A stretch of 64,000 bases of DNA, from NCBI GenBank assembly GCA_040905715.1, contig JBBDRA010000003.1, positions 7,075 to 71,074 of the forward strand, written 5' to 3'. This document shows, piece after piece, positions 7,896-61,734 of this stretch (position 1 is its first letter; each line of letters starts with the position of its first letter). Source of the DNA: Minisyncoccota bacterium. Lineage in GTDB: Bacteria > Patescibacteriota > Minisyncoccia > Phycocordibacterales > CSBR16-193. The notes under the pieces were generated by a model. The model was given only the letters and a program-made list of their open reading frames with translations. It was not told the origin of the DNA and did no database searches. Both the position numbers and the translations under genes were made by a program.

Positions 7896-8426
7896 ATGGG
7901 CAGAAAACTTGTATACACAGTACTAGGTATTTCGGTTGTCGTATTTCTTTTTGCGGTCGTCTTTTTGCTGTTCTCAGATCAGCAAAGTGAAACTTCGGAT
8001 CTGGAATTTGAGACGGTGAGCACATCAACAGATACCGAGGATGGGTCGAGTAGTGAAACTGATGTTCCTGAAGGTGTTGGATCACAAGCAACTACTACAG
8101 TTAACGCGGATGTATTTGATGAAGAGAAGGCACAAGGAAGCTGTGTGAGTGAGCATGAGGAAGAACTTGAGGAACAGAACTACACCGAAGGGAGTCTTTT
8201 GGTCGCGTTCGAATCTGATATTGAATTTAATGACGCGAGACGGATCATCGAGGTGGAGGGCGCTTCGTTTGGCGATGAGGATTCCGCCGAGTCCTCGTTT
8301 GATGATCAGGGTTGGCTCGAGGTTTCGGTAACCGAAGGCGAGGAGGCACGGTATATGTGCCGATTTGAACGGTATCCGGAAGTGCGAAGCGTTCGGGCTA
8401 ACATGGTTTTTGAATTGCACGAATAA
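7896..8426 (+). CDS. Membrane-anchored highly acidic hypothetical protein
   Basis: N-terminal TM helix followed by a D/E/S/T-rich region; promoter-like TGgTATACT upstream. Confidence 0.5.
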   Translation: MGRKLVYTVLGISVVVFLFAVVFLLFSDQQSETSDLEFETVSTSTDTEDGSSSETDVPEGVGSQATTTVNADVFDEEKAQGSCVSEHEEELEEQNYTEGSLLVAFESDIEFNDARRIIEVEGASFGDEDSAESSFDDQGWLEVSVTEGEEARYMCRFERYPEVRSVRANMVFELHE

Positions 8427-13421: not shown

Positions 13422-13613
13422 ATGAATTACGTTACTCAATTCATCAATTACGTGAAAGACACACAGGGAGAAATGCTGCACGTCAGCTGGCCAACGCGTC
13501 GCCAGGCGATCATCTATACGGTTATTGTGATCGCTATATCGCTTGCAATCGCTCTGTTCCTTGGCTTTTTTGACTGGATATTCTCAGTGGGATTAAACAC
13601 GTTTGTACTGTAA
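13422..13613 (+). CDS. secE: Preprotein translocase subunit SecE
   Basis: 63 aa, single C-terminal TM, immediately upstream of nusG (conserved secE-nusG-rplK order). Confidence 0.75.
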
Positions 13614-13635
13614 CGAGTCACCTTCATTCTTTATT

Positions 13636-14187
13636 ATGGTTCAACAGAAACAACAAGTTAATCAGGGACGCAACTGGTATGTCGTGCACACGTACGCCGG
13701 TTACGAGGATGCTGTGCGCCGAAACCTTAAGCAACGCATCGAGTCGCTTGGTATGACCGATCGGATCTTTGATGTGGTCGTGCCGACTGAAAAGAAGATC
13801 AAGATCAAGGGAGGCAAGCGTATTGAAGAAGAAGAAAAGATCTATCCCGGCTATATCCTCGTGAACATGATCGTGACTGATGAGTCGTGGTATGTGGTAC
13901 GAAACACTCCTCGCGTGACCGGATTTGTTGGGGCCGGTGTGTTTCCGGTTCCGGTTGATCAGGCAGAGATCGATGGCCTTTTTGCTCGTATGAATGCTGA
14001 CACAAGCTCTCACGAGATCGACTTGAGTGTCGGTGAGCTGGTATCGATCGTGGACGGTCCGTTCAAAGAGCTTGAAGGGAAGGTAAGCGAGGTGGATCAC
14101 GAGCGAGGCAAGGTGAAAGTGCTTGTCTCGATGTTCGGTCGCGAGACGCCGGTTGAACTTGATTTCTTGCAGGTGAAGAAAACCTAA
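13636..14187 (+). CDS. nusG: Transcription termination/antitermination factor NusG
   Basis: NGN domain ([11 protein letters not shown]) and KOW domain ([18 protein letters not shown]); alternative TTG start at 13603 is less likely. Confidence 0.85.
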
Positions 14188-30700: not shown

Positions 30701-31207
30701 CATATGGAAAGCTGGCCGAAGGGCCCTCAACCCGATGAGCAAGTGCTTACTAATATGGAAAAAGTTAGAGAGATCGTCACACAAGCGCTTGAATTGCGGG
30801 CGAAGGCAGGAGTGAAAGTTCGCCAGCCGTTGGCAGTGTTGACGATCGCTGAAGACATGGATGAAGCATATCGGGCGATCATTGCCGAGGAAGTGAATGT
30901 GAAGGAGGTGGCGGTTGGCAATGAGCTTGCGCTTGATACCGAATTCACCGATGAACTTAAGCAAGAAGGCGCTGTACGTGAGCTTGTTCGTGCAATTCAA
31001 GGGCTTCGCAAGGACTCCGGCATGAATCCGAGCGACAAGGCCACTCTTGCTGTCTCCACGGACGAGGCGGGCGCACAATTGATCGAGCAGTACCGAGACG
31101 AAGTTACCAAAACAACGAACCTTTCAGAGGTAACGTATGGCGATGTTGCTCAAGGAAAAAGTGTGGAGGCGAATAGCTATTCGTTCACTATTGATCTTCA
31201 TATATAA
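27761..31207 (+). CDS. ileS: Isoleucyl-tRNA synthetase (type 2) carrying an embedded histidine-phosphatase (PGAM-like) domain
   Basis: Class I motifs PPTANGRPGIHH and KMSKSKGN; editing domain; DWAISRERYWGTPLPIW, then an ~200-aa insert before DLHRPYID..DVWFDSGSMPF; TTG start at 27761 (an ATG alternative lies at 27782). Confidence 0.85.
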   Translation: MVVLAVYMTTCKDENTKSELAKREEEILKQWQENSIFEKTLEQTKGGEEFVFYEGPPTANGRPGIHHLEARAFKDAIPRYKTMRGYHVRRKGGWDTHGLPVELEVEKQLGLTSKNEIEEYGIEKFNEKCRESVWTYVNEWRSFTERIGFWVDLDDPYVTYQPDYMESVWNVLGQANERKLLYKDYKVLPWCPRCGTALSSHELAQGYETVKDLSVYVAFKITDRDEYLLAWTTTPWTLPGNVALAVSKEVEYVLIEVEGKKVWLTKDRLEHVAPEAVVEKEVKGGELVGLAYEPLYAYLKDNLPESEKEKLANAFQVYDADFVTTEDGTGIVHTAVMYGQDDFELGSRAGLPKFHLVKENGTFIPETDFLAGRFVKDESTDVEIIKDLAHRGLLVKKEKVEHTYPHCWRCKTPLIYYARGSWYIRMSELRDELVKENQEINWEPEHIRDGRFGEWLSEVKDWAISRERYWGTPLPIWTDESGDEVEVVSSREDLHKKAPEKVVKVFFMRHGESVKNVTHTFDSGQADFPLTEKGKEEAKRAGEELKDAGIDLVVTSPIQRTLETAEIVAGELGAELVVEEGLSEIKSGSWDGKKLDDESIKESRATYCALGPEDYYTAPRGETGESWKEIEARAFGAVSKVIDENPGKTVLFVAHQGIVVYALKPLKGWDIVETRNERVYDKEFHAHAHPVLVYIDRERKRELDLHRPYIDAITYEKDGKEMKRVPEVMDVWFDSGSMPFAQDHYPFENKERLEAGGYPADFISEAIDQTRGWFYTLHAIGAIMGFGKAYKNVISLGHILDAEGKKMSKSKGNTVDPWELMDKYGADALRFWMYSVNQPGEPKNFVEQTVDEVVKKVFNLASNTARFYEMYKDSDDGTDPDKTDVLDQWIESYTNKVVQDVTDDLENYKLLEASRSIREFITDLSQWYLRRSRDRIKEGDQAALSTLRQTLLTLAKLLAPFAPFFAEDLYSRVGGGKESVHMESWPKGPQPDEQVLTNMEKVREIVTQALELRAKAGVKVRQPLAVLTIAEDMDEAYRAIIAEEVNVKEVAVGNELALDTEFTDELKQEGAVRELVRAIQGLRKDSGMNPSDKATLAVSTDEAGAQLIEQYRDEVTKTTNLSEVTYGDVAQGKSVEANSYSFTIDLHI
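29270..29865 (+). other. In-frame histidine phosphatase superfamily (phosphoglycerate-mutase-like) domain inserted within IleRS
   Basis: FFMRHGESVKN (RHG catalytic His motif), SPIQRTLETAEIV, second His region VAHQGIVVYAL; flanked by canonical IleRS segments. Confidence 0.75.
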
Positions 31208-44461: not shown

Positions 44462-46597
44462 TCAGGCTTCCGCTTGTAGGTTTTCGCGGATCTGTTTGAG
44501 GAGTTCAGTTCTGATCTTCTTGCTTTCTTTCTGTTGGAGAAGTTGGCGAGTGGCGTCGTATCCGCGACCAAGTTTCTCCTCGCCGTAGTAGTAGACGCTT
44601 CCTTTCTTGGTCACGAGCCCAAACCGCTCGCCAAGGGCGATAAGTTCGCCTTCTTTGGAGATACCTTCGTTATACATCAGATCGAATTCGGTCTGTTTGA
44701 ACGGTGCAGCAACCTTGTTTTTCACCACCTTTACACGTACCCGTCCGCCCATGACAGCATCACCTTTCTTGATCTGGGCAATACGGCGCACGTCAAGGCG
44801 AACCGACGTGTAGAACTTGAGCGCTCGACCACCCGGAGTCGTCTCGGGAGAGTTACTTACCAGACAGTCATCTATAAAGTAGTTGTGGTTGTTAGCAACA
44901 GAAATATCAAATCGCTGTTTACTGATCCGCTGACCGTCTCGATAGGGAACGCGGGTTCCTATCTTCTGTACTCGCATTGGTCTCAATACCTCGGTTTGGT
45001 TTGTCTGAGTCGGCAGTTGGTGAAACTGTCCGCGGTAGGAAGCAGGGAGTTTGTACTCCATTGACGAGGGTACGAACGGAGCGATCAGCTCAAATAGTTT
45101 GTCCGACTCTGCTACTGAAAATGAGAGCACGTCGTACTCGCCACACGCTCGCCATGTAGGTGTTATACCGAAACGCGCAAATATGCGGTCGATACGTTCA
45201 CGACTTTTTGTGTCATTGGAAAATCCGTTTACATATAACGCGGCGCGTGGGCGACGGGTGTAGGTTTTACCCTTCCAGTATGTTTTGCCGGTCTGAAGTG
45301 ATCCGTCGCCACAGTACCACAACGCGATCGCTCGGGGCGTGATCGTCTCAACGATCGATTCCGGTACTATCTTTTTCTTTTCAACGTAGAATAGGGAATG
45401 AAGGTCACCGATACGCAAAAGCGCTTGTGTTTCCATTGTCGCGGTACCGCGCGAGGTTTGCGTAGTAACATTACGTGTTAGGTCACCGAGCTCTTCAGCT
45501 AACCAGGATACATATCCGCTTTGAGAGGCGGCGTGTTCTTCTCTAAAGTACGCCGTTTGCTCACCTTGTTTCTTGATATTTCCGTCACCAAGTAGGGAGC
45601 CGATGATTATCTGCTCTTGTTCATGGCTCATCTCGGTATTTGATATGCGGACAGAGATTTCATCGCCTTCCTTAATATCTTTTGCCTTTCTCCAGCCATG
45701 CGGCGTGTAAACCTTGTGGTCAGGAGTACACGAGAACCCGCGCCGTCCGTTCCCTGTGTGGTTTTGTACAAAAAACTGGAGAAATGAGTCTGTTTCTCCG
45801 TTAATGTGCCAGTCAAGCACCGGTTGAGGTTCAATCTGCTTTGTCTCAAAGTTGTACGAGAGTACTTCTACCGGAAGTGTCTGGTTTACAATCTTTCCAA
45901 TTTTCTCACGACTTCCGTCGGCGAGCATTACCTGGGAGTCGTACGAGAAACAGCCGAACATAACGCCGATCTTCTCACGGATCTGGTTAATAAATATGAC
46001 CGTGGTGTTGCTTTTGGCGACGATAGCGGTCAGCTTACGGAGTGCTTGGGACATCAGGCGTGCCTGCTTGCCCACCTGGGCGTCACCCATCTCACCCTCG
46101 ATTTCGTCTCGGGGAGTAAGAGCGGCAACTGAGTCAACGACGATAATGTCTACTTTGCCGGATCGAACAAGGCTTTCGGTTATCTCCAGTGCCTGCTCCC
46201 CGTTGTCCGGCTGAGAGATCAAGAGGTCATTGATATTCACTCCAAGTTTCTTGGTGTACTCCGGGTCCATGGCGTGCTCGGCATCAATGAATGCTGCGAT
46301 CCCTCCTTGCTTTTGTGCTCCGGCAACTGCGTGGAGAGCAAGCGTGGTCTTTCCGGAAGATTCCGGTCCGTATATCTCGATAACACGCCCGCGGGGAAAT
46401 CCTCCAACACCAAGAGCGTAGTCAAGACCCACCGAACCGCTTGGGATAGCATCAATATCTACCTTAGGTCTCTCCCCAAGTTTTGTAATGGATTCTTCTC
46501 CGAACTTTGTCTGGATCTCGCGAAGAGTGTCGTCAATACTTGTACTTGCGTCATCTTTCTTTTGCAAGGTCTTTGCGGTTTTCTGTTTCTTGGCCAT
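44462..46597 (-). CDS. recA: Recombinase RecA precursor interrupted by a 367-aa intein
   Basis: Exteins give a 344-aa RecA (Walker [10 protein letters not shown]; ..[10 protein letters not shown] | [14 protein letters not shown]..); intervening sequence begins with Cys and ends with Asn before Ser+1. Confidence 0.9.
44852..45952 (-). mobile_element. RecA intein with LAGLIDADG homing-endonuclease domain, inserted at the VMFG/SPETT (RecA-b-like) site
   Basis: Block A CFSYDSQV; LAGLIDADG motifs [12 protein letters not shown] and [12 protein letters not shown]; C-terminal ..[14 protein letters not shown] then S+1. Confidence 0.85.
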
Positions 46598-47181: not shown

Positions 47182-49482
47182 CTACTGTGGATTTTGTCCG
47201 TTATCCCCAGGGGCGGACGGGTAGGTTCCATCATCGGTGAAACTGTTGTGACCGCCGAAATTACCGGCTTCCTCGTTCACAAGAACACGTCGCGGTTTTG
47301 ATCCCTCTCCTTCACTAACAACCCCGCGCTCTTCAAGCATGTCCATAAGACGAGCCGCTCTCGCGTAGCCCACTTTAAGCTTACGCTGAATGAGTGAGGT
47401 TGATGCCTTGTTCATTTCTATAACAAGCTCTCGCGCTTCTTCAAAGAGTTCGTCCTCGTCGTCACCGTCTTCGTCAAAGGATACATCGGTAACACTGCCG
47501 GCTGATTCACCGGTGAAGTCGATCTGCTCAGGCAACTCGTTGCTGTACTGGTCGGCAAGGTACGTAACAACTTTCTTCACCTCATCTTCGGTAATGAAGG
47601 CGGACTGAATACGGCTTGGTTGTGACATCTCACCTGATAGGTACAACATGTCACCGGCACCCAACAGCTTCTCGGCGCCACCGGCATCGAGAATGGTGCG
47701 GGAGTCTACCTGTGAGGCCACCTGAAGGGCAATACGTGCCGGAATGTTTGCTTTAATAAGACCGGTGATGACATTTACACTCGGGCGTTGAGTTGAGAGC
47801 ACGAGGTGAATACCAACCGCGCGGGACATCTGCGCGAGTCGTACGATAGCCGATTCCATTTCTCGCGGGTACGCCTGCATAATATCGGCAAGCTCATCAA
47901 CGATAACCACGATGTACGGCATGGTTTCAGGCAGCTCATCGTCTTCGCCGGCCTCGCCCTTCTTGTGCTTCGCGAGAGCCGGTTCCAGAACGTTCTTGTG
48001 ATATGAACCGATGTCGCGAACTTTTTCTGTTTCCAGAATGTCGTATCGACGATCCATTTCTTTCTGTGCCCACTTGAGTGAGAGAATAGCTTTTTTAGGA
48101 TCGGTGATCACCGGGGTAAGCAGGTGGGGGATGCTGTTGTAAAGTGTTAGCTCCACACGTTTTGGATCGACCATGATAAAGCGCATGAACTCCGGCGAGT
48201 TTCGGTACAGAAGCGAGGTGATCAGCGAATGAATGGTCACTGATTTACCGGAACCGGTTGCGCCGGCGATCAGCACGTGAGGCATCTTAGCTAGGTTGCC
48301 AAAGTGCGTCTCGCCGGTGATGCCTTTTCCAAGCGCCATCAATAGAGGCTTGTCAGGTTCAGAGAAAGCCTTTGAGCCAAGCAATGTGGCAAGACCGATC
48401 GTGGACTTGGTCGTGTTTGGTAGCTCGATACCTACTAAGGACTTGCCTGGAATTGGGGCTTCGATGCGGAGTGGGTGAGCCGCAAGCGCGAGCGAAAGGT
48501 CGTTCTGGAGCGCCACGATACGTGAGAGCTTTACTCCTTCTGCCGGCTTGAGTGCGTAGCGGGTTACAGTCGGCCCGACTGACACCTCGTCCATTTCAAC
48601 CTGAACACCGAAGTTGTGAAGCGTTCGCTTTATAACATTTGCGTTTGCCTTGATGTCACCTACGCCCGGCTTTCCTCGATCTTTCTCAAGGAGTTTCAAC
48701 GGAGGCGGCTTGTACTCGATCGAGAATGAGCTTGATGGTGTTAGATCCAGCTCACCGGTCGTCGAAAGGGTTCGATCTTCAGTGTCGCTATCTATTTCCG
48801 CGGGCGCAGCTGGTGGTTCGGGCGGTAGATCTGTCTCAAGCGTGGTACCCATCTCGTCGTCGGCCACATCGCTGTCCAGGTGGAACGTGCCAAGATCTTG
48901 ACCCTCGTCGGCAAGCTCGTCATTGCTTCCGAACAAGCGCTGGGGAAGTGAAAGGACCGCCTCAAGAGAAATGAGGTGGTCGAATACGATCAAGAGCGCA
49001 ATAAAAAGCGTCGCTCCTAAAATGATAACCGTGAGGTACAGCTCAAAAAGCGAGAGGAGTGGTGCGGTTATCGCTGCTCCGATCACACCACCGGGACTTT
49101 CGATCTTGCCGGCGAGCAATATCTGGATAAGACCTAATCCACCGATTATGAATAGGATACCTCCAAGTGCTTGCGAGATAGCAACCTTCTGCCGAAGTGC
49201 TTTGAGGAAGGATATTCCTAAAAGGATAAACAAAACCGGAAGCAAAAAGTAGCCGACACCCAGTAACATATCGAGAAGGGTAAATGCCTTCTCTCCCACT
49301 AAGCCTGCATTGCCAAAATAAGCCAGCACAAGGAAAGCGGTGATAACAAAAAACACGATCGCCACAACCGCCTGAATAGTCTCTTCGCGGATGTATTCGT
49401 ATAGTCCGAGGGATTCCTCCTCTTCAAACTCCTCTTCCTCCGTATCCTTTTTCTTTGTTTTCTTTTGTGATTTCTTTGCCAT
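47182..49482 (-). CDS. ftsK: DNA translocase FtsK/SpoIIIE
   Basis: N-terminal 4-5 TM; linker; motor domain with Walker A GATGSGKS, Walker B; gamma domain wHTH. Confidence 0.9.
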   Translation of the reverse strand: MAKKSQKKTKKKDTEEEEFEEEESLGLYEYIREETIQAVVAIVFFVITAFLVLAYFGNAGLVGEKAFTLLDMLLGVGYFLLPVLFILLGISFLKALRQKVAISQALGGILFIIGGLGLIQILLAGKIESPGGVIGAAITAPLLSLFELYLTVIILGATLFIALLIVFDHLISLEAVLSLPQRLFGSNDELADEGQDLGTFHLDSDVADDEMGTTLETDLPPEPPAAPAEIDSDTEDRTLSTTGELDLTPSSSFSIEYKPPPLKLLEKDRGKPGVGDIKANANVIKRTLHNFGVQVEMDEVSVGPTVTRYALKPAEGVKLSRIVALQNDLSLALAAHPLRIEAPIPGKSLVGIELPNTTKSTIGLATLLGSKAFSEPDKPLLMALGKGITGETHFGNLAKMPHVLIAGATGSGKSVTIHSLITSLLYRNSPEFMRFIMVDPKRVELTLYNSIPHLLTPVITDPKKAILSLKWAQKEMDRRYDILETEKVRDIGSYHKNVLEPALAKHKKGEAGEDDELPETMPYIVVIVDELADIMQAYPREMESAIVRLAQMSRAVGIHLVLSTQRPSVNVITGLIKANIPARIALQVASQVDSRTILDAGGAEKLLGAGDMLYLSGEMSQPSRIQSAFITEDEVKKVVTYLADQYSNELPEQIDFTGESAGSVTDVSFDEDGDDEDELFEEARELVIEMNKASTSLIQRKLKVGYARAARLMDMLEERGVVSEGEGSKPRRVLVNEEAGNFGGHNSFTDDGTYPSAPGDNGQNPQ

Positions 49483-49780
49483 AACTGAAGATTCTACCAA
49501 TTTAGTATAACACCCGCAAAGGCGCAAAGGAATAAATGAAATATAGAACGGAATACAGAGAATACGGCAAGTAATAGTGAATAAAAGTAGAAGAAGGCCG
49601 GAAAAAGCTATCGCACTTGCAAAGCGCAGCAACAACCCCTTTTTGCTTCTTAAGTACCCAAATGAAAGGGTCGTGAGCCCTCAAAAGAGCCGATCTGTTG
49701 CAAAAGGACAGGTTTTATATACTATAAGACATGTCTTTTAAAACGCTCTGTATAGGACAATATGTTAAGGACAGTATTGA

Positions 49781-49815
49781 CATTAAGAATTGTCTCTTAT
49801 ATAATCTCTAGACAA
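49781..49815 (+). promoter_or_regulatory. Sigma70-like promoter TTGACA-N18-TATATAAT
   Basis: ttgacattaagaattgtctcttatataat. Confidence 0.6.
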
Positions 49816-49831
49816 GGTAAAGGACATAATC

Positions 49832-50689
49832 GTGTCCATGACAGATAACTCAAAAAACCGCTACATACAAGAGACAAGCGAAAACACCGCCCTCACTAAC
49901 ACTCCTAGTGACAGCAGTTTTGTCTCTTTGTACAAAAAGACAGAAAAGATAGCTACGGCTATCTATCTCGTGACCGACCTCCTCGATCACGAGGAACCTT
50001 TACATTGGTCGCTTCGAGAGAATGTTACCTACCTACTCAATCTTTTGGTGTCCTTAAGAGATACTGTTGATACTCGTTCGAATACGAAGAACGCCTGCCG
50101 CAATAAACTTATTGATCTGATCACGCAGATCAATGTCGCCACATCGGCCGGACTTATCTCTCAGATGAACGGTTCGGTCCTTGTGCGTGAGCTGAATACG
50201 CTTGCCGATAGGATAGATCAGCTTTCAATTGATTCTGTCGGAGGACCTCATCTAGACGATGCGTTTTTCAAGTCGTCAGATTCGGAAAACGTAGCATCTG
50301 CGCCTGATCAAGGCCGCAGACATGCTTCTGTAAATAAGCCTGCTTTGAAGAGTGAACCGCTTAACGGTGGATCTGCTTTAGCCTCAAGCCAGGCGAGTAA
50401 ACAGGGTGTGGATAATCCGCAAATACAGGGTGGTAATACTGACAGTGCTTCATCCGAAGTTACTCGTTCAAAAGGCACAAAACCGGCGGTTCAGGCCAAG
50501 AAGAACAAGCGTCAGCGCGCCATCCTTCACCTTATTAAGGAGAAGGGCGAGGTGAGCGTGAGAGACGTTGCTACAGTGATCGCTGACTGCAGTGAGAAAA
50601 CACTTCAGCGTGAGCTCATGGCGTTGGTTGATGAGGGAGTTTTACAAAAGTCCGGGAAGCGGAGGTGGACACGGTATTCGTTCGCGTAG
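49832..50689 (+). CDS. Hypothetical protein with C-terminal winged-HTH (DeoR-like) domain
   Basis: C-terminal ILHLIKEKGEVSVRDVATVIADCSEKTLQRELMALVDEGVL; low-complexity S/T/Q-rich middle. Confidence 0.5.
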   Translation: MSMTDNSKNRYIQETSENTALTNTPSDSSFVSLYKKTEKIATAIYLVTDLLDHEEPLHWSLRENVTYLLNLLVSLRDTVDTRSNTKNACRNKLIDLITQINVATSAGLISQMNGSVLVRELNTLADRIDQLSIDSVGGPHLDDAFFKSSDSENVASAPDQGRRHASVNKPALKSEPLNGGSALASSQASKQGVDNPQIQGGNTDSASSEVTRSKGTKPAVQAKKNKRQRAILHLIKEKGEVSVRDVATVIADCSEKTLQRELMALVDEGVLQKSGKRRWTRYSFA

Positions 50690-50702
50690 CGTCTGCCGGT
50701 AA

Positions 50703-50740
50703 GGGCGTAGTAGAGCGCTCTGCTACGCCCTAGTTCTTGC
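50703..50740 (+). terminator. Rho-independent terminator
   Basis: agggcgtagtagagcgctctgctacgccct + agttcttg. Confidence 0.7.
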
Positions 50741-50960
50741 CCTGGGTCCTTGACTCACACGACGTTTCCTTTTAAAGTAGCCGCACGTTGAAATATGCAA
50801 TAGAGCTTGTAACCAAACACTTCTTCTGCTGTTTAGTTTTGTGTTCTTCGAGACGTTGTCCGGTGTAAAGATCCGGTGTAAAAGTACAGACCGGACTACG
50901 GCTCATAAGAAGAAAAGTGATAAAGAGTAGAAGTGGTGCTTGGTTGTCCACACAATTATT

Positions 50961-50989
50961 TTGCTCACTAATCAATGTGGGGATATAAT
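50961..50989 (+). promoter_or_regulatory. Strong sigma70-like promoter TTGCTC-N17-TATAAT heading a non-coding, structured locus
   Basis: ttgctcactaatcaatgtggggatataat. Confidence 0.6.
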
Positions 50990-50995
50990 TTAAGA

Positions 50996-51400
50996 GAGGG
51001 GATAGGTAATAAGACCTGTGTGCCTGTTTCTCGTACGGAAACAGGCTTCGGTGATACCTCCCCTCTGAGGTGTAAGAGAATAGAAAGTAGACGATAGACA
51101 GAAGACGAGCAGTCTTGACAAGCTACTTCTTCTATTCTTTAGAAGATGAAGAAGCTCGCGACGTGTAATATCTGAACGAGTTTCTGAGTCTACACGACCA
51201 AGCACTGGAATTGTCAGATATAACGAACATTTTTCGTTCGTCCTGTCTGAAAATTATAGTGCGTATGTCCTTTGACAATTAAATACAGATTCGTGTCACG
51301 GTGCTCTTAGCACGGTGACCACTATCCAGTATGCCTAAGGCATACTCACTATAATCCAGAGCAATATACATATTGCCCTGCTGTGTCGCTTGTCGTATAC
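50996..51400 (+). ncRNA. Candidate structured non-coding RNA / orphan rRNA-operon-like leader (several perfect hairpins plus a boxA antitermination element)
   Basis: Hairpins agagggg..cccctct enclosing cctgtttc-tcgtacg-gaaacagg, gaatagaaagtag..ctacttcttctattc, gtcacggtgc..gcacggtgac, agtatgcc-taa-ggcatact, gcaatat-aca-atattgc; boxA at 51266-51285; no protein-like ORF. Confidence 0.4.
51266..51285 (+). promoter_or_regulatory. boxA-like antitermination element TGTCCTTTGACAATTAAATA (copy A)
   Basis: 19/20 identical to the element 140 nt upstream of 23S (57395..57414); resembles rrn boxA (TGCTCTTTAACAATTTATCA). Confidence 0.55.
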
Positions 51401-51522
51401 CATTCATTTGTATACCAAGGACATGGAAAAGAAGGCTGTGAAGAGAAAAAGGAAGAGAAGAAAGTAAAAGTATAAGTGATGACTGTTCAACAGTTTCATC
51501 ACTTTCAATTCAATCGATTGTA

Positions 51523-51879
51523 TTGGAAGAGAAGAATGAAAGGAAGAACGAGGCGGCGGCTCAGAGCGTGCTGAAAAACTGCTTTCGAGTCGAGGGTTCC
51601 AATTTTGAGTCGAGGCGCGAGCTGGAGACCGAAAAATATTTTAGATATTTTAAGGTCGAAGCAAAGTGTCGCAGGCCAAAATTGAAATTCGTAGACCGGA
51701 ATGAGTTTTTCCGGCACGCTCATCCTCTCGGTGCTCGGCTTCGCTCACTAAACACTTCATTGATCCGGCGACACTTTGGTGAGGTCAGATCAAAGAAGAA
51801 TTGTTTAATAGCGATGCCGGGCGCCGAGGTGAGCGGCCCGACGATACACAATGCGTATCTACACTACTTTGTAGCATAG
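51523..51879 (+). CDS. Doubtful ORF (118 aa, basic) inside the non-coding locus
   Basis: GGAAGAG RBS-like upstream; composition not convincingly protein-like. Confidence 0.2.
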   Translation: MEEKNERKNEAAAQSVLKNCFRVEGSNFESRRELETEKYFRYFKVEAKCRRPKLKFVDRNEFFRHAHPLGARLRSLNTSLIRRHFGEVRSKKNCLIAMPGAEVSGPTIHNAYLHYFVA

Positions 51880-52082
51880 GTCGCATGGTGTCGTGCGCCA
51901 GGTCGGGAAACCGATAGGTGCGCTATTACAAGCATTGCTCCGTATGCTTCGTGCGCAAGTGCGGAGAATACAGTACGGAGGAATAGTGATTACAAAGTCT
52001 GCCCGTTACACACAGCTAATTAGTGAATAGTTAGTATTATCAACAAGACAGATAACGGGTAGCAACAAAATTAGTAGAAAAT

Positions 52083-53984
52083 ATGACTGCACAAGACACG
52101 ATAAGAAGTAAAGCAATTGCTGGCTTTGTAGGCCTCGCAATGGCTATGACCTTTGCATTCGCTGGCGCCATGAGCGTAAGCGCGCAGAGTGACAGCGTTG
52201 CCGAACTACAAGCACAGATCGAAGCACTGCAAGAAGCGCTTGCAGCATTAACAGGAGGTAATGCATCTGCTGAATGTTCAGTAACTTTCAGCCAGAACCT
52301 TTCACAGGGTGACACTGGTTCAGAAGTTATGGCTCTTCAGCAGTTCCTTAACGCCAACGGCTACACTGTAGCTTCAGCTGGCGCAGCAGGATCAGCAGGT
52401 ATGGAGACCAGCTACTTTGGTCCCGCAACCCACCAGGCTGTTGTAGCGTTCCAGAACGCTAACTCAGCTCAGGTACTTGCACCGGTTGGCCTTTCCATCG
52501 GAACAGGTTACTGGGGTCCATCTTCACGCTCACACGCAAACACAATGTGTGCAGCTGACTCAGGCTCTGACTCAGATGACTCTGACTCAGATGGCGACTC
52601 AACTTCTGGTGACCTCGAAGGTGGCGTTGGCGACATTGACGACGCTGACTTCATCTCAGGCATCAACAACGAAAGCGTTGGAGAAGGCGAGAGCGACGTA
52701 GAGGTTCTCGGTCTTGAGATCGAGGCTGACGACGGTTCAGACATTGAGATTATGGCTGTAACCATCGACTTCGACTACAACGGCACATCAAGCGACGACT
52801 TCGATGACTACGCTGAGGAGGTCTCAGTATGGTTCGAGGGAGAGAAGGTTGCTGAAGTTGACGCTGATGAGTTTGAGGACGATGACGACTACAACCGAAC
52901 TGTCTCACTTGACCGCGGTGCGATCATTCGCGCAGGTGACACAGCTGACTTGACTGTAGCTGTCTCAGGACAGAACACCATCGACTCAGCTGATCTTAAC
53001 GACAGCGACTGGGACGTATCGGTAGAGCAGGTTCGCATCCGTGATGCAGCCGGCGCTATCCTTACCGTTTCTCAGGGAGATATCGATGCAGCCAAGGAGC
53101 GCAGCTTCGACTTTGAGGACGAGGCAGCAGACGAGAGCATCGAGATCAAGTCTTCATCAAACGACCCTGACTCAGACGTCTTCCTCGTAGAGGACGACAC
53201 CAATGAATCTGACTGGTTCGAGACATTCATCTTCCGACTAGAAGGTGAAGAGAATGACATCGAAGTTGATGAGATCGTTATTAACCTCGAAATCGGCTCA
53301 AAGGCATACAGTGCTGTTGTAAGCGACATGGCTCTTGAGATCGACGGCGAGGAGTTCAGCGATTTCGATGTATCAACGAGCTCAGCTAGCTCAACAAACG
53401 TTACCTTTGACATCGACGGTGACTTCACTATCGATGCTGATGACGACGTTGAGGTAGTTGTACTCATGGAGTTCCAGGGAACTAACAGCGGAGCTAACTA
53501 CGCTGACGGTGAGACCATCCAGGTCAACACTGTATCTGTTGAAGGTGAAGGAAACGACGATGTTTCTGACACTGCAACTGTTACCGGTGACGAGCACACG
53601 CTCAGCACGTCAGGTGTTGTGATCTCTGGTGTTGACTCTGAGGGAAGTGTCAACGAGGCTGGCGACACAGCATTCATCTCATGGGAGTTCACCATCGGCG
53701 CTGAGGACGGTGACATTGACTTCAATGTTGCTGACAAGAACAACGTTGATGGAGACACTGACGATGTACGATTTGATGTCCTCGGTGGAGGAAACGCAAC
53801 GTCATCGATCATTCTTCTCTCAGGAGACGCTACTTCTGATGGAAGTGGTTGGACTATCAACGAGGGTGACGAGGCAACATTCGGTCTCGACACTACTATC
53901 ACAGGATCAGGTACACACCGTGTACGACTTGAGACAGTTGAAGGTGTAACCGTAGATGAACTATCTGGTTCACAAAACATCTAA
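52083..53984 (+). CDS. Secreted protein with a peptidoglycan-binding (PG_binding_1-like) domain and a long poly-acidic Asp/Ser/Glu-rich region
   Basis: Signal peptide (AMAMTFAFAGAMSVSA); coiled segment; LSQGDTGSEVMALQQFLNANGY..THQAVVAFQ PGBD-like; D/E-rich repeats. Confidence 0.65.
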   Translation: MTAQDTIRSKAIAGFVGLAMAMTFAFAGAMSVSAQSDSVAELQAQIEALQEALAALTGGNASAECSVTFSQNLSQGDTGSEVMALQQFLNANGYTVASAGAAGSAGMETSYFGPATHQAVVAFQNANSAQVLAPVGLSIGTGYWGPSSRSHANTMCAADSGSDSDDSDSDGDSTSGDLEGGVGDIDDADFISGINNESVGEGESDVEVLGLEIEADDGSDIEIMAVTIDFDYNGTSSDDFDDYAEEVSVWFEGEKVAEVDADEFEDDDDYNRTVSLDRGAIIRAGDTADLTVAVSGQNTIDSADLNDSDWDVSVEQVRIRDAAGAILTVSQGDIDAAKERSFDFEDEAADESIEIKSSSNDPDSDVFLVEDDTNESDWFETFIFRLEGEENDIEVDEIVINLEIGSKAYSAVVSDMALEIDGEEFSDFDVSTSSASSTNVTFDIDGDFTIDADDDVEVVVLMEFQGTNSGANYADGETIQVNTVSVEGEGNDDVSDTATVTGDEHTLSTSGVVISGVDSEGSVNEAGDTAFISWEFTIGAEDGDIDFNVADKNNVDGDTDDVRFDVLGGGNATSSIILLSGDATSDGSGWTINEGDEATFGLDTTITGSGTHRVRLETVEGVTVDELSGSQNI

Positions 53985-54077
53985 CTAACCTTAGTTAGAG
54001 GTAACAGCAAAGGATCACGGGTGTAACCCGTAGGACAGTCAAGCAGGTCTCAAACAGAGCCGTTGCAGGTCCGAAAC

Positions 54078-54116
54078 AAAAACCCCGCCTCCCTTTTGGG
54101 ACGGCGGGGTTTTTGT
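54078..54116 (+). terminator. Rho-independent terminator
   Basis: aaaaccccgcctcccttttgggacggcggggtttttg. Confidence 0.85.
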
Positions 54117-54126
54117 TATGTATTTT

Positions 54127-54149
54127 TTGCCAACCCCTGGGGTTGGCAA
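54127..54149. repeat. 23-bp perfect palindrome TTGCCAACCCCTGGGGTTGGCAA (copy 1)
   Basis: Exact palindrome; second copy at 54421. Confidence 0.8.
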
Positions 54150-54200
54150 AAGTGGAAGGATGTGGATTGGACGACGTCTTTAGCTGATATACTAGAAGGT

Positions 54201-54404: not shown

Positions 54405-54420
54405 TCATCATCATGGATTT

Positions 54421-54443
54421 TTGCCAACCCCAGGGGTTGGCAA
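54421..54443. repeat. 23-bp palindrome TTGCCAACCCCAGGGGTTGGCAA (copy 2)
   Basis: Differs from copy 1 only at the central base. Confidence 0.8.
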
Positions 54444-54471
54444 AAATATTCTAATTCAACGTGTAAAGTAG

Positions 54472-54674: not shown

Positions 54675-54953
54675 ATGATTTCAAATCAGGAGCATGCGTT
54701 TTATTACGTTTACGTCCTTTACTCAGTGAAAGATACTAATCTTTACGTTGGGTTTACTAGAGATTTGAAATCACGATTTGAGGATCATCAAAAAGGAATA
54801 GTCCCGTCTACAAGGGATCGTGCGCCTCTAAAGTTAATATACTACGAAGCGTACGTTTCAAAATCAGATGCGGTTCACAGGGAAAAGTATCTGAAGACAT
54901 ATCACGGACGTTTTTTCCTTAAGAAAAGACTTAAATCGTATTTAACCGGGTAG
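54675..54953 (+). CDS. Small GIY-YIG nuclease superfamily protein (YhbQ/UPF0213-like)
   Basis: YVYVLYS..DTNLYVGFTRDL..R...H..G pattern of GIY-YIG; 92 aa. Confidence 0.7.
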   Translation: MISNQEHAFYYVYVLYSVKDTNLYVGFTRDLKSRFEDHQKGIVPSTRDRAPLKLIYYEAYVSKSDAVHREKYLKTYHGRFFLKKRLKSYLTG

Positions 54954-56173: not shown

Positions 56174-56205
56174 AAACCGCCCGGCTTTGCCGGGCGGTTT
56201 TTGTG
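56174..56205 (+). terminator. Rho-independent terminator after rplL (no rpoB follows)
   Basis: aaaccgcccggctttgccgggcggtttttgtg. Confidence 0.85.
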
Positions 56206-57078: not shown

Positions 57079-57106
57079 TTGACACAGCATCAAAGCTGTA
57101 TATAAT
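57079..57106 (+). promoter_or_regulatory. rRNA promoter TTGACA-N16-TATAAT about 440 nt upstream of 23S
   Basis: ttgacacagcatcaaagctgtatataat. Confidence 0.65.
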
Positions 57107-57394
57107 AGCAAGACAAACTTATGGCAATAGGAACTTGTTTGTATACTTGTTTGAGTACGTAGAGCGGATGGCACCAAACTCCTCACGGAGAACCTAGACG
57201 GTGTACCGCTTCACAGGCGGTTTTTCTTTTGTTAACGTAGGTTGTGCGTCAGAAAAGAAAACCGCATCAGCTGCTAAAAATAGTAGGAAGACAGTAAAAT
57301 ATTCTTGCTCCTCACATGGGTCGCTTACGCTTGAGTGGTTGTATGACTTCTCCCGTTCGTACGTGCGAGCCAGGTGAGAGGCCGGAATAGGGCC

Positions 57395-57414
57395 TGTCCT
57401 TTGACAACTAAATA
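57395..57414 (+). promoter_or_regulatory. boxA-like antitermination element TGTCCTTTGACAACTAAATA (copy B) in the 23S leader
   Basis: rrn boxA-like; near-identical to copy A at 51266. Confidence 0.6.
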
Positions 57415-58020
57415 GTTCTAGCAATGACATGAGCCTCATTGTTAGAACGAGGTAACAAACAGCAAATGAAATGTTGATACATTGATTGTATGTATCAGAG
57501 CAAAACATTGGTTAATGAATTTCCTAATAGGAAATTAAAGGGCGTATGGTGGATGCCTTGACTTCAAGAGGCGATGAAGGACGTGGTACGGCTGCGATAA
57601 GCTTCGGTGAGGTGCCTAACAACCTATGAACCGAAGATCTCCGAATGGGGAAACCCAATTCCGTTTAAGCGGGATTACCCTGTCGTTGAAGAACGGCAGG
57701 GAGTACACCCGGGGAAGTGAAACATCTCAGTACCCGGAGGAATATAGACAAATATGCATTCCCTTAGTAGTGGCGAGCGAAACGGGAGGAGCCTAAACCA
57801 CTGTGCTTGCACAGTGGGGTTGCAGGGTAGAAGTGCGGGGAATCCCGGATTTATTATTATTGTTAGCAGAATCAGCTGGGAAGCTGAACCCAAGGGGGTA
57901 ATAGTCCCGTACGCGAAAACAATAATGTATTTCTGACTTCTATTCCTAAGTAGTTCAGGACACGAAAAGCCTGAGTGAATCTGCCAGAACTAACTGGTAA
58001 GGCTAAATACTCTTGAAGAT

Positions 58021-58063
<43 letters not shown>

Positions 58064-59517
58064 GATAAGGGGAGTGAAATAGATCCTGAAACCATACGCC
58101 TACAAGGAGTCGGAGCGGGCGCTTGCGTCCGTCACGGCGTGCCTATTGAAGAATGAGCCAACGAGTTGATATATGCGGCTTGGGTAAGCTCTGAGAGGAG
58201 CGCACCCGTAGGGAAACCGAGTGTGAATAGCGCGTATGCTCCACAATGTGGGGTCGTCGTATGTATCAGACCCGAAACCAGGCGATCTTGCCATGGGCAG
58301 GGTGAACTCCGGCGAAAGCCGGAGGGAGGCCCGAACCGAATGGCCGTGCAAAACCATCGGATGACCTGTGGTAAGCAGTGAAAAGCTAATCGAGCTTGGT
58401 AATAGCTGGTTCTCTCCGAAACAGCTTTAGGGTTGGCGTCCGGATTACCCGCTTGGGGTAGAGCTACTGGATGGTCTAAATAGGGGCTACGCCTCATTAG
58501 ACCAATCAAACTCCGAATACAAGCGGTCAACTTCCGGGCAGTTAGACCATGGGCGCTAAGGTCCATTGGTCAAAAGGGAAACAGCCCAGACCTCCAGTTA
58601 AGGTCCCTAAATCTATGCTAAGTGCACTTAAGGTGGTGGAATTTCTCAGACACTGAGGAGGTTGGCTTAGAAGCAGCCATCCTTTAAAGAGTGCGTAACA
58701 GCTCACTCATTTAGAGATTCTGCGCCGAAGATAATCGGGGCTAAGCATAGTACCGAAACTGAGGATGTTTACGATCTCCGGATCGTAAGCGTGGTAGGAG
58801 AGTATTTCACGCTGCGATGAAGCTGAAGGGGTGACCCACAGTGGAGCGCGTGGAAGTAAGAATGTTGGCACAAGTAACCGCAAGGCAGGTGAGATCCCTG
58901 CCCGCCGAAAGACTAAGGATTCCTTGGCGATGGTGATCAGCCAAGGGTTAGTCGGGGCCTAAGGCAATCCCGAACGGGGGAGCCGATGGAGACTATGGTT
59001 AATATTCCATGACCCCCATATAGTCCGATTGGAGTGACGGAGCGCTGTACTTCTCGCATATTAGCGGATTTATGTCCTTTCTGTGAGGCCGCTCTCTAGG
59101 TAAATCCGGAGAGCATAAGCCGAGCAGCGAGGCGAATCCGTCGTACGCGACGGAGAAGGAGGAGGAGCGCGCTTCCAGGAAAAGCTTCTCAGGATAACTA
59201 TATGGGGCCCGTACCAAAACCGACACAGGTAGTCAGGTCGAGTAGACCAAGGCGAACGAGTGAAATGTCCCTAAGGAACTCGGCAAAACAGCGGCCGTAC
59301 CTTCGGTATAAGGCCTGCCTTCACTGCTTCGGTAGTGAAGGCCGCAGCTAAAGATTCCCTGGCAACTGTTTACCAAAAACATAGCTCCCTGCGAACTCGA
59401 TAAGAGGATGTATAGGGAGTGACGCCTGACCAATGCCAGAAGGTTAAACATGGGCTGTACACGCGTTTACGTGTGTGCCGACTTTTGTATGCCCTGGTGA
59501 ATGTCGGCCGTAACTAT

Positions 59518-60298
59518 AAACCTGACCGTTGTAGTTACGTAAATAAACTTTGCTATATGCGGGAAAACCCGGATGCATCTTGACGGTACTCGCTTCTTGT
59601 CGAAGAAGCAGTAACAAGCCGTCAAGTGAGCTTCGCATGAGCGCCGGACGATCCGCAGGAAAGACTTCCGCAAGTCACATCTATGGAAGGATATAAGGTG
59701 CAATCAGTAAAACCAGAGCATGGATATTACATAGCCGGCTTTACTGACGGAGAAGGAAGCTTCAACGTTTCGATAAAAAAGAGAAAAGATTATCGAAATA
59801 CGTGGAAATTAACAGCTTCCTTTAACATTTCTCAACGAGATCGTGTAATACTCAGCTTCATTAAGAAGCAGTTACAATGCGGAACGCTCCGCACACGGAA
59901 GGATGGGGTGGTGTACTACGAAGTAACTAACCCAACTTCCTTGTACGAGAATGTTATCCCATTCTTTACACGATTTCGGTTTCTGTCTGCTAAGAAAAAG
60001 CGAAATTTCTCGTTATTTTGTCAGATAGTAGAGAAGATGTACCGAAAAGAACATCTCTCAGAGGAAGGATTTCAAGAAATTCTTCAACTGAGGGAAAAAC
60101 TCAACAAGGGTATTGGAAGGAAGAGAAAGTACGATATTACAAGTTGTAGTTAATGCGGAAGAATCCTCAGAGACTATACGCAAAGTACCACTGAAACAAT
60201 GATTGGAAGCCGACTGTTTCAGGGTAATGATATAGTCCGATCCTTATGGCGACATAAGGTCTGAGCGTCAATCTGACGCTTGGTAGAAAACAGAGACG
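59518..60298 (+). mobile_element. Group I intron in 23S domain IV (helix 69-71 region, E. coli ~1917 site) carrying a LAGLIDADG ORF
   Basis: Exon junction CGTAACTAT | AACGGTCCTAAGGTAGCG restored when 59518-60298 is removed; 5' exon ends in U and the intron ends in G. Confidence 0.8.
59683..60153 (+). CDS. Intron-encoded single-motif LAGLIDADG homing endonuclease
   Basis: YIAGFTDGEGSF LAGLIDADG motif; 156 aa, basic. Confidence 0.8.
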   Translation: MEGYKVQSVKPEHGYYIAGFTDGEGSFNVSIKKRKDYRNTWKLTASFNISQRDRVILSFIKKQLQCGTLRTRKDGVVYYEVTNPTSLYENVIPFFTRFRFLSAKKKRNFSLFCQIVEKMYRKEHLSEEGFQEILQLREKLNKGIGRKRKYDITSCS

Positions 60299-61116
60299 AA
60301 CGGTCCTAAGGTAGCGAAATTCCTTGTCTGGTAAGTTCAGACGCGCACGAATGGCGTAATGACTGGGGAACTGTCTCAGGGGCATGCTCGGTGAAAATAC
60401 AATACCAGTGAAGATGCTGGTTACCTGCAGCAGGACAAAAAGACCCCAGAAGCTTTACTGTAGTTTGATATTGGATGTACAGTTTCTCTGCGAAGTATAG
60501 GTGGGAGACTTTGAAGCGTTGGTTTCGGCTAGCGTGGAGTCGTCAGTGGGATACCACCCTTAGAACCTGTATATTCTAACCCGGTGAGAAAAACTCATCA
60601 GGGACAGTATCTTGCGGGCAGTTTGAGTGGGGCGCTCTCCTCCCAAAAAGTAACGGAGGAGCCTATAAGGTCGGCTAGGCGCGAATGGAAACCGTGCCGA
60701 TAGTGTAATGGCACAAGCCGGCTTAACTGTAAGACGTACATGTCGAGCAGATGCGAAAGCAGAGCATAGTGGTCCGACGGTTCGTCTTAGAGACGGCCGG
60801 AGCTTAACGGATAAAAGCTACTCTGGGGATAACAGGCTGGTACCGCCTAAGAGTTCATATCGACGGCGGTGTTCGGCACCTCGATGTCGGCTCGACTTAT
60901 CCTGGCGCTGGAGAAGGTGCCAAGGGTTCGGCTGTTCGCCGATTAAAAAGTCACGCGAGCTGGGTTCAGACCGACGTAAGTCAGGTTGGTCTTCTATCCG
61001 CTGCAGGCGTAGATTCTTGAAGAGATTCGCTCCTAGTACGAGAGGGCCGGAGTGAACTGACCTCTGGTGTATCAGCTGTCACGCCAGTGGCACTGCTGAG
61101 TAGCTATGTCGGGAAT

Positions 61117-61149
<33 letters not shown>

Positions 61150-61404
61150 AACTCTAAGATTAGGAATCATAGATCCCTGGGAGATGACCAGGTTGATAGG
61201 CACTAGGTGTGCGCACAGTAATGTGCTTAGCCGAGGTGTACTAATTCATCATATCCTATTAGGAAATTTGGATGCCAGCGTCCGCACCACACAGGTGTGG
61301 CGCGGGCGAAAAGTGTTTTGCTCTGTTAGATGGAATGAATGCGTTTGTTTCATTGTTAGTTTGTAATATTGAGTTGTGTGTATTGGGTGTATACGGGATG
61401 TAGC

Positions 61405-61624: not shown

Positions 61625-61734
61625 TGCTGGTGCTTTGGCGAGAGGGGTACACCTGTTCCCATCCCGAACACAGCAGTTAAGCCTTTCAGCACCGATGATA
61701 GTCTTTCAAGGCGAAAGTAGGTCGGCGCCAGCAT
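61625..61734 (+). rRNA. rrf: 5S ribosomal RNA
   Basis: GCTGGTGCTTTGGCGAGAGGGGTACACCTGTTCCCATCCCGAACACAGCAGTTAAGCC..GTAGGTCGGCGCCAGC. Confidence 0.85.

Follow-up and report, generated by a model that had tools for sequence, protein, structure and literature searches.

The question addressed here is what an element resembling boxA of ribosomal RNA operons (rrn) does in a gap that holds no rRNA gene. The element lies in a stretch of 64,000 nt from a Minisyncoccota bacterium (assembly GCA_040905715.1, contig JBBDRA010000003.1), which was analysed as a whole and is called the window. The gap (50690-52082, 1393 nt without a convincing open reading frame, ORF) separates a gene for a helix-turn-helix (HTH) protein of 285 amino acids (49832-50689, + strand) from a gene for a surface protein of 633 amino acids (52083-53984, + strand). 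The original prediction had offered three explanations: a stranded 16S/rrn leader, an antitermination leader of the downstream surface-protein gene, or a distinct structured RNA. The second fits the observations best. We put at roughly 60 per cent the probability that the locus consists of a promoter and a structured 5' leader of about 1.09 kb (50944-52082) belonging to the surface-protein gene, and with the same confidence we file it as a putative case of rrn-type boxA antitermination that serves one surface-protein gene through its long, conserved and structured leader. Paceibacteria and at least one metagenome-assembled genome (MAG) of the Saccharibacteria share the entire arrangement.

The element in question is the 20-mer TGTCCTTTGACAATTAAATA (51266-51285, + strand), which is identical at 19 of 20 positions to the sequence at 57395-57414 in the leader of the 23S rRNA gene. 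This pairing, pointed out in the original prediction, was confirmed, and the distance from the second copy to the 23S start located by Rfam (57525) is 130 nt. The 23S copy served as a reference (57079-57414, + strand): there a perfect promoter, TTGACA-16-TATAAT (57079-57106), precedes the boxA. When both strands of the 64 kb were searched with up to three mismatches allowed, only these two copies were found, compared with a chance expectation of 0.02, and none of 100 shuffled sequences contained two. Beyond the 20-mer, no wider similarity was detected between the leader and either the 23S leader or the 23S-5S spacer. The 17 nt that run into the element (51251-51267, AAATTATAGTGCGTATG) match the start of mature 23S rRNA (57532-57548, AAATTAAAGGGCGTATG) at 15 of 17 positions; the E value of this match, AAATTA.AG.GCGTATG, is 3, so it is probably due to chance.

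In the crystal structure of the NusB-NusE-BoxA complex bases 1 to 8 of the RNA are contacted, and G2, C5, C/U6 and U8 are critical (PMC3177189). As the criterion for boxA we used G2, C5, C/U6, U7 and U8 of (U/G)GCUC(U/C)UU(A/G)(A/G)CA; the rrn boxA of Aquifex is GGCUCCUUGGCA (PMC3177189), and the gamma-proteobacterial consensus is GYTCTTTAANA (PMC5725501). The element of the window reads U-G-U-C-C-U-U-U-G-A-C-A (UGUCCUUUGACA), and its counterparts in related loci, described below, read GCUCUUUGACA, GUUCUUUGACA or GGUUCCUUGACA. All five positions are retained in 10 of 12 loci. The likeness to boxA noted earlier is thus supported by the positions contacted by NusB/NusE, by the copy in the 23S leader and by recurrence in related loci, and these observations support the proposal that the 20-mer is a boxA, a putative NusB/NusE site in RNA. 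The extended form TGTTCTTTGAAAACTAAA... also appears to resemble the boxA region of Gram-positive rRNA operons.

The specificity of the motif was estimated with a degenerate 11-mer, G[ACT][ACT]C[CT]TTGA[AC]A, scanned on both strands. It matched 10 of the 12 leaders and the 23S leader, and had two other sites in the 161 kb covered by these loci. In 803 kb of unrelated metagenome DNA the 11-mer occurred at 2.86 per 100 kb, from which about 0.14 matches would be expected in the approximately 10 kb of leader. This background DNA came from a metagenome scan with the 17-mer TTCAATTCAATCGATTG, whose 120 loci were essentially all chance matches and were used for no other purpose; five similar-looking loci among them contained no rRNA. 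Literature searches with the boxA-variant sequences returned unrelated primers only, and no paper linking boxA with bacteria of the Candidate Phyla Radiation (CPR) was found.

Conservation of the element can be followed through the genes around it. A locus of a Saccharibacteria MAG (L002) contains an FtsK gene on the - strand (in the window 47182-49635, the first gene of the order around the leader), an HTH gene whose product is 30% identical to that of the window, a gap of 789 nt and a surface-protein gene. Homologues of the HTH and surface proteins led to further loci (L003, L005, L006, L008, L009/L010, L011, L012/L013, L135, L136 and L137). The order FtsK(-), HTH, gap and peptidoglycan (PG)-binding gene is present in L002, L003, L005, L006, L008, L009, L011, L012 and L137, and L135 and L136 hold partial copies of it. 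Among the loci the flanking proteins are 30-63% identical and the gap measures 492 to 1514 nt. A protein gene follows the leader in every locus that extends far enough, and the HTH gene is likewise found directly upstream. Synteny in relatives, which the original prediction had proposed to compare, therefore proved to be conserved as far as the gene order is concerned; the 16S gene that might have been expected at this position was absent, as were all other rRNA and tRNA genes, from the gaps of the nine related loci scanned.

The shared elements were located by one script in 12 loci, and in all of them the order is the same: a 9-mer, a -10 hexamer, boxA, a long stretch and the ATG. A boxA-like element is present in the leaders of all 12, in weaker variants in L012 and L136. 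It is always positioned early in the leader, at a distance of 27-317 nt from the inferred start and of 325-827 nt from the ATG, in leaders whose total length ranges from 362 to 1086 nt.

The promoter described in the original prediction, TTGCTC-17-TATAAT, is present as stated (50961-50989, + strand; -35 at 50961-50966, -10 at 50984-50989). Its -35 hexamer agrees with TTGACA at only three of six positions, which is why a generic promoter scan omitted it, and the case for its reality rests on conservation: a -10 hexamer (TATAAT, TATACT or TATATT) with a -35 of the TTGC or TTGT type is found in 12 of 12 loci. About 200 nt further upstream the scan listed a candidate promoter TTGACT-17-TAAAGT (50750-50778, + strand). 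The pattern TTGACT-17-TA(A/G)A(G/T)T occurs also in L005 (3968-3996), in L003 (near 6859) and in L134, and its counterpart in L006 is TTGACT-17-TATAAT (7119-7147); the leader may have tandem promoters in the style of rrn operons.

Upstream of the main promoter lies the 9-mer TTGTCCACA (50944-50952, + strand), at about -52 to -44 from the inferred start. In 11 of the 12 loci a 9-mer TT[A/G/T]TCCACA begins 39-41 nt ahead of the -10 hexamer, essentially as a single copy per locus. It is identical to the classical DnaA box TTATCCACA in six loci and differs from it by one mismatch in the other six, the variants being TTGTCCACA (the window and its closest relatives), TTTTCCACA (two loci) and TTATCCCCA (L009); TTGTCCACA we take to be the DnaA-box form of actinobacteria. 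The sequence thus has what is looked for in a DnaA-regulated promoter: a consensus box whose place with respect to the promoter is conserved. The fixed spacing between 9-mer and -10 makes it probable that a DNA-binding protein, possibly DnaA, controls initiation at this promoter; the position is conserved, and the identity of the protein and its effect are what the motif suggests. The adjacent HTH protein may be an alternative binder. The HTH gene has an upstream motif of its own, the palindrome AAGACATGTCTT with AGGACA repeats, which does not co-vary with the 9-mer. A perfect TTATCCACA is also found inside the HTH gene (50407-50415, - strand) and is not conserved in L003 or L005.

From the inferred start to the ATG the RNA is predicted to be heavily structured. 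Folding energies were expressed as z-scores against dinucleotide shuffles (three coding controls gave values from -1.2 to -3.0), and the + strand of the leader mostly had the stronger scores; for the leader as a whole the folding energies are -407 kcal/mol (+ strand) and -352 kcal/mol (- strand). Most of the perfect hairpins reported in the original prediction are indeed perfect or nearly so; one has a central G-G mismatch. An alignment of the window with L003 and L005 consists of conserved blocks interspersed with variable stretches, and its indels are not multiples of three. Domain 1 (50990-51265, + strand, z = -6.2; alignment A1, RNAalifold A3), between the inferred start and boxA, is 27-317 nt long among the loci and shares with close relatives the blocks GTTTCTCGTACGGAAA, GTGTAATATCTGA and GAGTCT.CACGACCAAGCAC. 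Domain 2 (51286-51475, + strand; z = -3.1 for 51286-51530) consists of short hairpins, among them TATGCC-TAA-GGCATA and GCAATAT-ACA-TATTGC, followed by a purine-rich tract. Hairpins stand at matching positions in L003 and L005 with different sequences. Next comes, on the + strand, a hairpin at 51476-51502, in which three pairs show compensatory changes, and then the 22-mer TTCAATTCAATCGATTGTATTG (51504-51525) with the palindrome CAATCGATTG. This 22-mer recurs, identical or nearly so, in L003, L005, L006, L008 and L135, at 164-251 nt after boxA. Purine-rich tracts with repeated GGA/AGGA flank it on either side (51416-51475 and 51525-51556), and similar tracts are seen in L003, L005 and L006. 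The following 190 nt (51531-51722, + strand, z = -6.5) form a genome-specific expansion segment, absent from L003 and L005 and without a second copy in the window.

A conserved fold is also indicated for domain 3 (51723-52062, + strand; z = -8.8, compared with -5.4 for the - strand). The RNAalifold prediction for this domain comprises 66 pairs in seven helices, including a 21-bp helix (51723-51745 with 51810-51832), a GNRA hairpin (51902-51915), a ATTACAAG junction (51925-51932) and a terminal hairpin (51999-52008 with 52053-52062). Standard pairs occupy 93.4% of the paired alignment cells compared with 86.0% in shuffles, and 16 pairs are changed on both sides versus 6.0 ± 1.9 in shuffled alignments; none of 500 shuffles reached 16, and slid partners gave at most seven. 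One hairpin has a wholly different sequence in each of the three genomes at the same position, and another retains its GNRA loop (GAAA or GUAA) with compensating changes in the stem. By eye, the order of helices is alike in L006 and L008. Between the last helix and the ATG an A-rich, apparently unpaired stretch (52063-52082, + strand) carries ATTAGTAG at 52070-52077 and has no Shine-Dalgarno sequence. ATTAGTA[G/A] is found 3-14 nt ahead of the ATG in L003, L005, L006, L008 and L137, and an ATTAYAAG motif occurs 100-160 nt ahead of it in most loci. The folded domains could possibly serve mRNA stability, control of the Shine-Dalgarno-less start or protein binding; that domain 3 in particular sets the stability and/or translation of the surface-protein mRNA is speculative.

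That this RNA belongs to the surface-protein gene is suggested by three observations. The terminators of this genome are GC-rich hairpins followed by a T-run, for example at 54075-54117 and, after the L7/L12 gene, at 56174-56200; the window, L005 and L008 show no canonical + strand terminator between the promoter and the ATG. Only 20 nt separate the end of the last conserved helix (52062) from the ATG, and no conserved promoter adjoining this ATG was seen. Taken together, these features led us to assign the RNA to the surface-protein mRNA as its leader, although a stable leader RNA produced by processing may also exist.

The following sequence of events can be envisaged. RNA polymerase would start at the sigma-70-type promoter TTGCTC-17-TATAAT, with initiation controlled through the upstream DnaA-box-like site. 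After about 270 nt boxA would emerge in the transcript and be bound by NusB and NusE (S10), a step proposed because the 20-mer is nearly identical to the copy in the genome's own 23S leader and keeps the contact positions. Together with NusG, whose gene is in the window (13603-14187), and NusA, they would turn the polymerase into a termination-resistant complex of the rRNA type. The modified polymerase could then pass more than 800 nt of untranslated, hairpin-rich RNA that would otherwise be open to Rho-dependent and pause-linked termination; with 0.4-1.1 kb that is never translated, the leader is the kind of RNA that needs protection by boxA. The antitermination complex may also aid folding of the leader RNA. 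Finally, the folded 3' domain, ending 20 nt before the A-rich start region that lacks a Shine-Dalgarno sequence, might set stability and/or translation of the mRNA of a very abundant envelope protein.

Several points weigh against this proposal. Positions 3-4 of the boxA are UC in the window versus CU in E. coli and Aquifex, and a critical position is altered in L012 (A6) and in L136 (G5). The TTGACA within the 20-mer is also a -35 hexamer, so that, judged by sequence alone, the element might act at the DNA level. Genes for NusB, NusA and Rho were not found within the 64-kb window. The leader of L006 holds an AT-rich terminator-like hairpin (8208-8236) and a promoter-like site (8007-8034). Of 36 genes inspected, about one third carry a TATACT/TATAAT-like hexamer whose end lies 5-11 nt upstream of the ATG, and Shine-Dalgarno sequences are very rare among them, which suggests that leaderless mRNAs are widespread in this genome (for example the genes at 1913, 7896, 23682, 31620, 43734(-) and 62119); against this background a 1.1-kb leader is odd, and leaves room for a separate RNA product. 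The covariation is based on three sequences (window, L003 and L005), and the structure was derived from the same three. A covariance model built from the last 160 leader positions was significant on its three training loci only. With filters off it gave + strand matches at the expected place before the ATG in L008, L006 and L009 (E values 0.1-2.3), and comparable matches elsewhere in the same loci. Lastly, it is from these data that we infer the transcription start, the co-transcription with the surface-protein gene and the binding of Nus factors alike.

These points bear on the other explanations to different extents. A doubtful alternative, but one to be taken seriously, is that the region encodes a large structured non-coding RNA that acts on its own and is produced in the manner of stable RNAs, the surface-protein gene being merely adjacent or provided with a start of its own. 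The leader is conserved, structured and free of matches to known families, for which reason the distinct structured RNA named in the original prediction still stands: an Rfam scan of the gap with a limit as loose as E ≤ 10 matched no family (the best match, to U12 snRNA at E = 0.078, was taken as chance), and no Rfam 15 family was found at E ≤ 0.5 in the gaps of eight relatives. Scans for RNA genes also bore out the statement that the gap 50690-52082 has no 16S, 23S or tRNA gene. Very strong folding with conserved helices, a boxA of the kind typical of stable-RNA operons and the leaderless appearance of so many genes point in the same direction, as does the N-terminal bundle of the neighbouring HTH protein, which resembles the 23S intervening-sequence (IVS)/Avd family, one member of which binds nucleic acid. 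An RNA of this kind should, however, end somewhere, and no conserved terminator or 3' end was found ahead of the surface-protein gene; the structure reaches to within 20 nt of the ATG, no conserved promoter was found next to that ATG, and in spite of a threefold variation in length the leader always precedes the same gene in the same orientation. A bolder version, to which we give a somewhat lower chance, supposes a new class of large structured CPR RNA, made by the rRNA-type antitermination and chaperone machinery from a DnaA-tied promoter and either released or acting as a stable RNA; such an RNA could, for instance, bind the four-helix-bundle/HTH protein or organise the synthesis of the surface protein. 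It is improbable that the 20-mer is a DNA operator or promoter element, for example for the HTH protein, whose likeness to boxA would be a coincidence. A perfect -35 hexamer does lie within it, the HTH gene is a constant neighbour, and TGTCC recurs as GGACA upstream of the HTH gene. Yet no -10 hexamer lies 16-18 nt after the TTGACA in the window or its relatives, which makes a cryptic promoter unlikely; conservation extends beyond TTGACA on the 5' (G-Y-Y-C-Y-U-U) and the 3' side (AYTRMATA), as it does in boxA; the 23S gene, too, is preceded by this element; and relatives with GTTC or GCTC instead of GTCC keep the GGACA repeats, so that the two motifs do not co-vary.

The remaining explanations have very little probability. 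A replication origin, or another feature acting at the DNA level, would agree with the conserved DnaA-box-like 9-mer, the long gene-free region, the nearby FtsK and RecA genes and the location of five of the 14 near-consensus DnaA boxes of the window between 47 and 52 kb. The number of boxes in the window is, however, at chance level (14 versus 11.7 expected), each locus has one conserved box at a fixed spacing from the promoter, the cumulative GC skew keeps climbing from one end of the window to the other and does not turn at 51 kb, and both the compensatory changes and the strand asymmetry of folding indicate RNA. A leader stranded after loss or relocation of 16S, the first suggestion of the original prediction, can hardly be maintained. 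It would account for the absence of 16S from the window and for a 23S-5S pair that stands alone with its own promoter and boxA; but in 12 loci from two CPR classes one and the same pair of genes encloses this gap, whose elements come in an unchanged order, the scanned gaps hold no rRNA or tRNA, and only the 20-mer is shared with the 23S leader. A remnant of an rRNA operon would not persist between two genes whose products are 30-63% identical. Just as improbable is a gap hiding one or more small protein genes. Several ORFs of 30-118 amino acids are present, and a 63-residue ORF was called in the gap of L008. The longest on the + strand of the window (51523-51879, 118 amino acids) has no match in a Pfam search, however, and overlies the segment missing in the two closest relatives; an all-against-all six-frame peptide comparison of nine gaps revealed no conserved ORF, only short matches scattered across frames and strands, of which the best (minus strand, L003 versus L005) has no counterpart in the window; and the indels in the alignment do not preserve a reading frame, being no multiples of three. 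The earlier statement that the gap has no convincing ORF thus held.

The antitermination leader preferred here can be compared with several known systems. The ribosomal antitermination complex contains NusB, NusE/S10, NusA and NusG, plus S4 and SuhB in E. coli. In rrn leaders, as here, a strong promoter is soon followed by boxA, and the transcript beyond it is long, untranslated and structured. The difference is that here the transcript ends in a protein gene and that a leader-trailer helix was not detected: no pairing of this kind between the surroundings of boxA and the sequence ahead of the ATG rose above the shuffled controls. Long transcripts that are not translated, such as rRNA and CRISPR arrays, are protected by boxA (PMC12360218; PMC7862264, citing Stringer et al. 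2020). The CRISPR arrays resemble our case in that a boxA outside rRNA keeps polymerase going on untranslated RNA; they differ in that here an mRNA leader would be protected, over 325-827 nt and with conserved structure instead of repeats. A boxA is also present in the 5' untranslated regions of suhB, rpsJ, prsA and parE in gamma-proteobacteria (Baniulyte et al. 2017, PMC5725501), which likewise are protein-coding genes. There it lies within about 50 nt of the start codon and represses translation, thereby promoting Rho-dependent termination (PMC5725501). With a boxA at least 325 nt from the ATG (325-827 nt), and thus distant from the site of ribosome binding, the suhB mode does not fit; a positive, rrn-like role is more likely.

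Leaders that confer processive antitermination on surface-structure operons are a further parallel, among them RfaH with ops/JUMPStart, the LoaP leader and the EAR RNA of the B. subtilis eps operon. LoaP antitermination is covered in PMC12691694. With these our locus has in common a cis element in a long leader and a link between polymerase processivity and cell-surface genes. They rely, however, on another signal and factor, namely NusG paralogues or a polymerase-acting RNA, and serve long multi-gene operons, whereas here there is a single gene and no Rfam match to EAR or any other family. S-layer genes such as slpA of Lactobacillus and of Thermus have 5' untranslated regions of about 100-200 nt in which no boxA is known. 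They resemble the present case as single, highly expressed envelope genes with a long structured leader and a hairpin near the start codon, and differ from it in that the leader is here 0.36-1.09 kb long and carries boxA.

The two proteins that flank the leader deserve a closer description. The HTH protein, for which 35 homologues were found and to which a protein of a 'Candidatus Paceibacterota' MAG is identical, has a weak match to Pfam HTH_DeoR. In its AlphaFold2 model (mean predicted local distance difference test score 77) a disordered linker joins the N-terminal part, a four-helix bundle, to a DeoR-like winged helix at the C terminus. The best fold matches of the bundle are Xcc0516 (2gsc), BT_0352 (2rld) and Avd (4dwl), a protein of diversity-generating retroelements; 2gsc and 2rld belong to the '23S rRNA intervening-sequence protein' family. 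A four-helix bundle is a generic fold, and the 23S-IVS/Avd match is therefore to be taken as a lead. Directly after the HTH stop codon stands a perfect GC-rich hairpin of 15 bp (50702-50731, + strand; inverted repeat I14), which probably marks the end of the HTH transcript despite having no T-run. Between the FtsK and HTH genes there is a perfect promoter (49777-49805), and the same intergenic region (49700-49831; in L003 5850-6000, in L005 2990-3123) contains the conserved 12-nt palindrome AAGACATGTCTT and several (A/T)AGGACA repeats, likely an operator array for the HTH protein itself.

The surface protein has a signal or anchor sequence, a coiled coil, a Pfam PG_binding_1 domain and a long acidic region, and at least 211 homologues of 590-715 amino acids were found in Paceibacteria/Parcubacteria. 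In three Paceibacteria the genes with the highest expression include those for secreted proteins that carry PG-binding domains (PMC10936435), which may belong to another family than the present surface protein. By analogy, the surface protein is probably very highly expressed. Its gene is followed by two canonical terminators (54075-54117 and 54124-54151), the GIY-YIG ORF, the genes for L10, L7/L12 and a hypothetical protein, the 23S promoter, and the 23S and 5S genes. Near-identical 28-nt hairpins TTTTTGCCAACCCC.GGGGTTGGCAAAA lie at 54124-54151 and 54418-54446, 294 nt apart. The GIY-YIG ORF (54675-54953) comes after these hairpins, and at the same position a Y1 (IS200-like) transposase gene is found in L006 (11842-12537) and L136 (3124-3858), so the spot downstream of the surface-protein gene appears to attract mobile elements.

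Other insertions were observed in the window. The rRNA genes present are 23S (57525-61263) and 5S (61626-61733), with no 16S or tRNA gene. The 23S gene spans 3739 nt compared with a model of 2925 positions, and its extra sequence includes a LAGLIDADG endonuclease ORF (59683-60153); it is therefore probably interrupted by a homing-endonuclease intron, of a kind common in CPR rRNA genes. An intein carrying a LAGLIDADG endonuclease domain splits the RecA gene (44462-46597, - strand, 711 amino acids), as it does in L003, and intein-free RecA of about 348 amino acids is encoded in L006, L008 and L009. A class I tRNA synthetase of the Ile/Val/Leu type (27761-31207, + strand, 1148 amino acids) has a histidine phosphatase domain (His_Phos_1) inserted at residues 505-677, midway through its catalytic domain.

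Antitermination by boxA and Nus factors is usually seen as a device of rRNA operons, and of phages, with a few recent extensions. Throughout the large uncultured lineage considered here, whose genomes are minimal, boxA appears to be conserved ahead of a single protein gene. If this is true, the probable dominant surface or host-contact protein of these bacteria would be expressed in an rRNA-like way, and a 20-nt RNA site, a DnaA-like box at a fixed spacing and a set of defined helices would together make a testable target for the study of gene control in the CPR.

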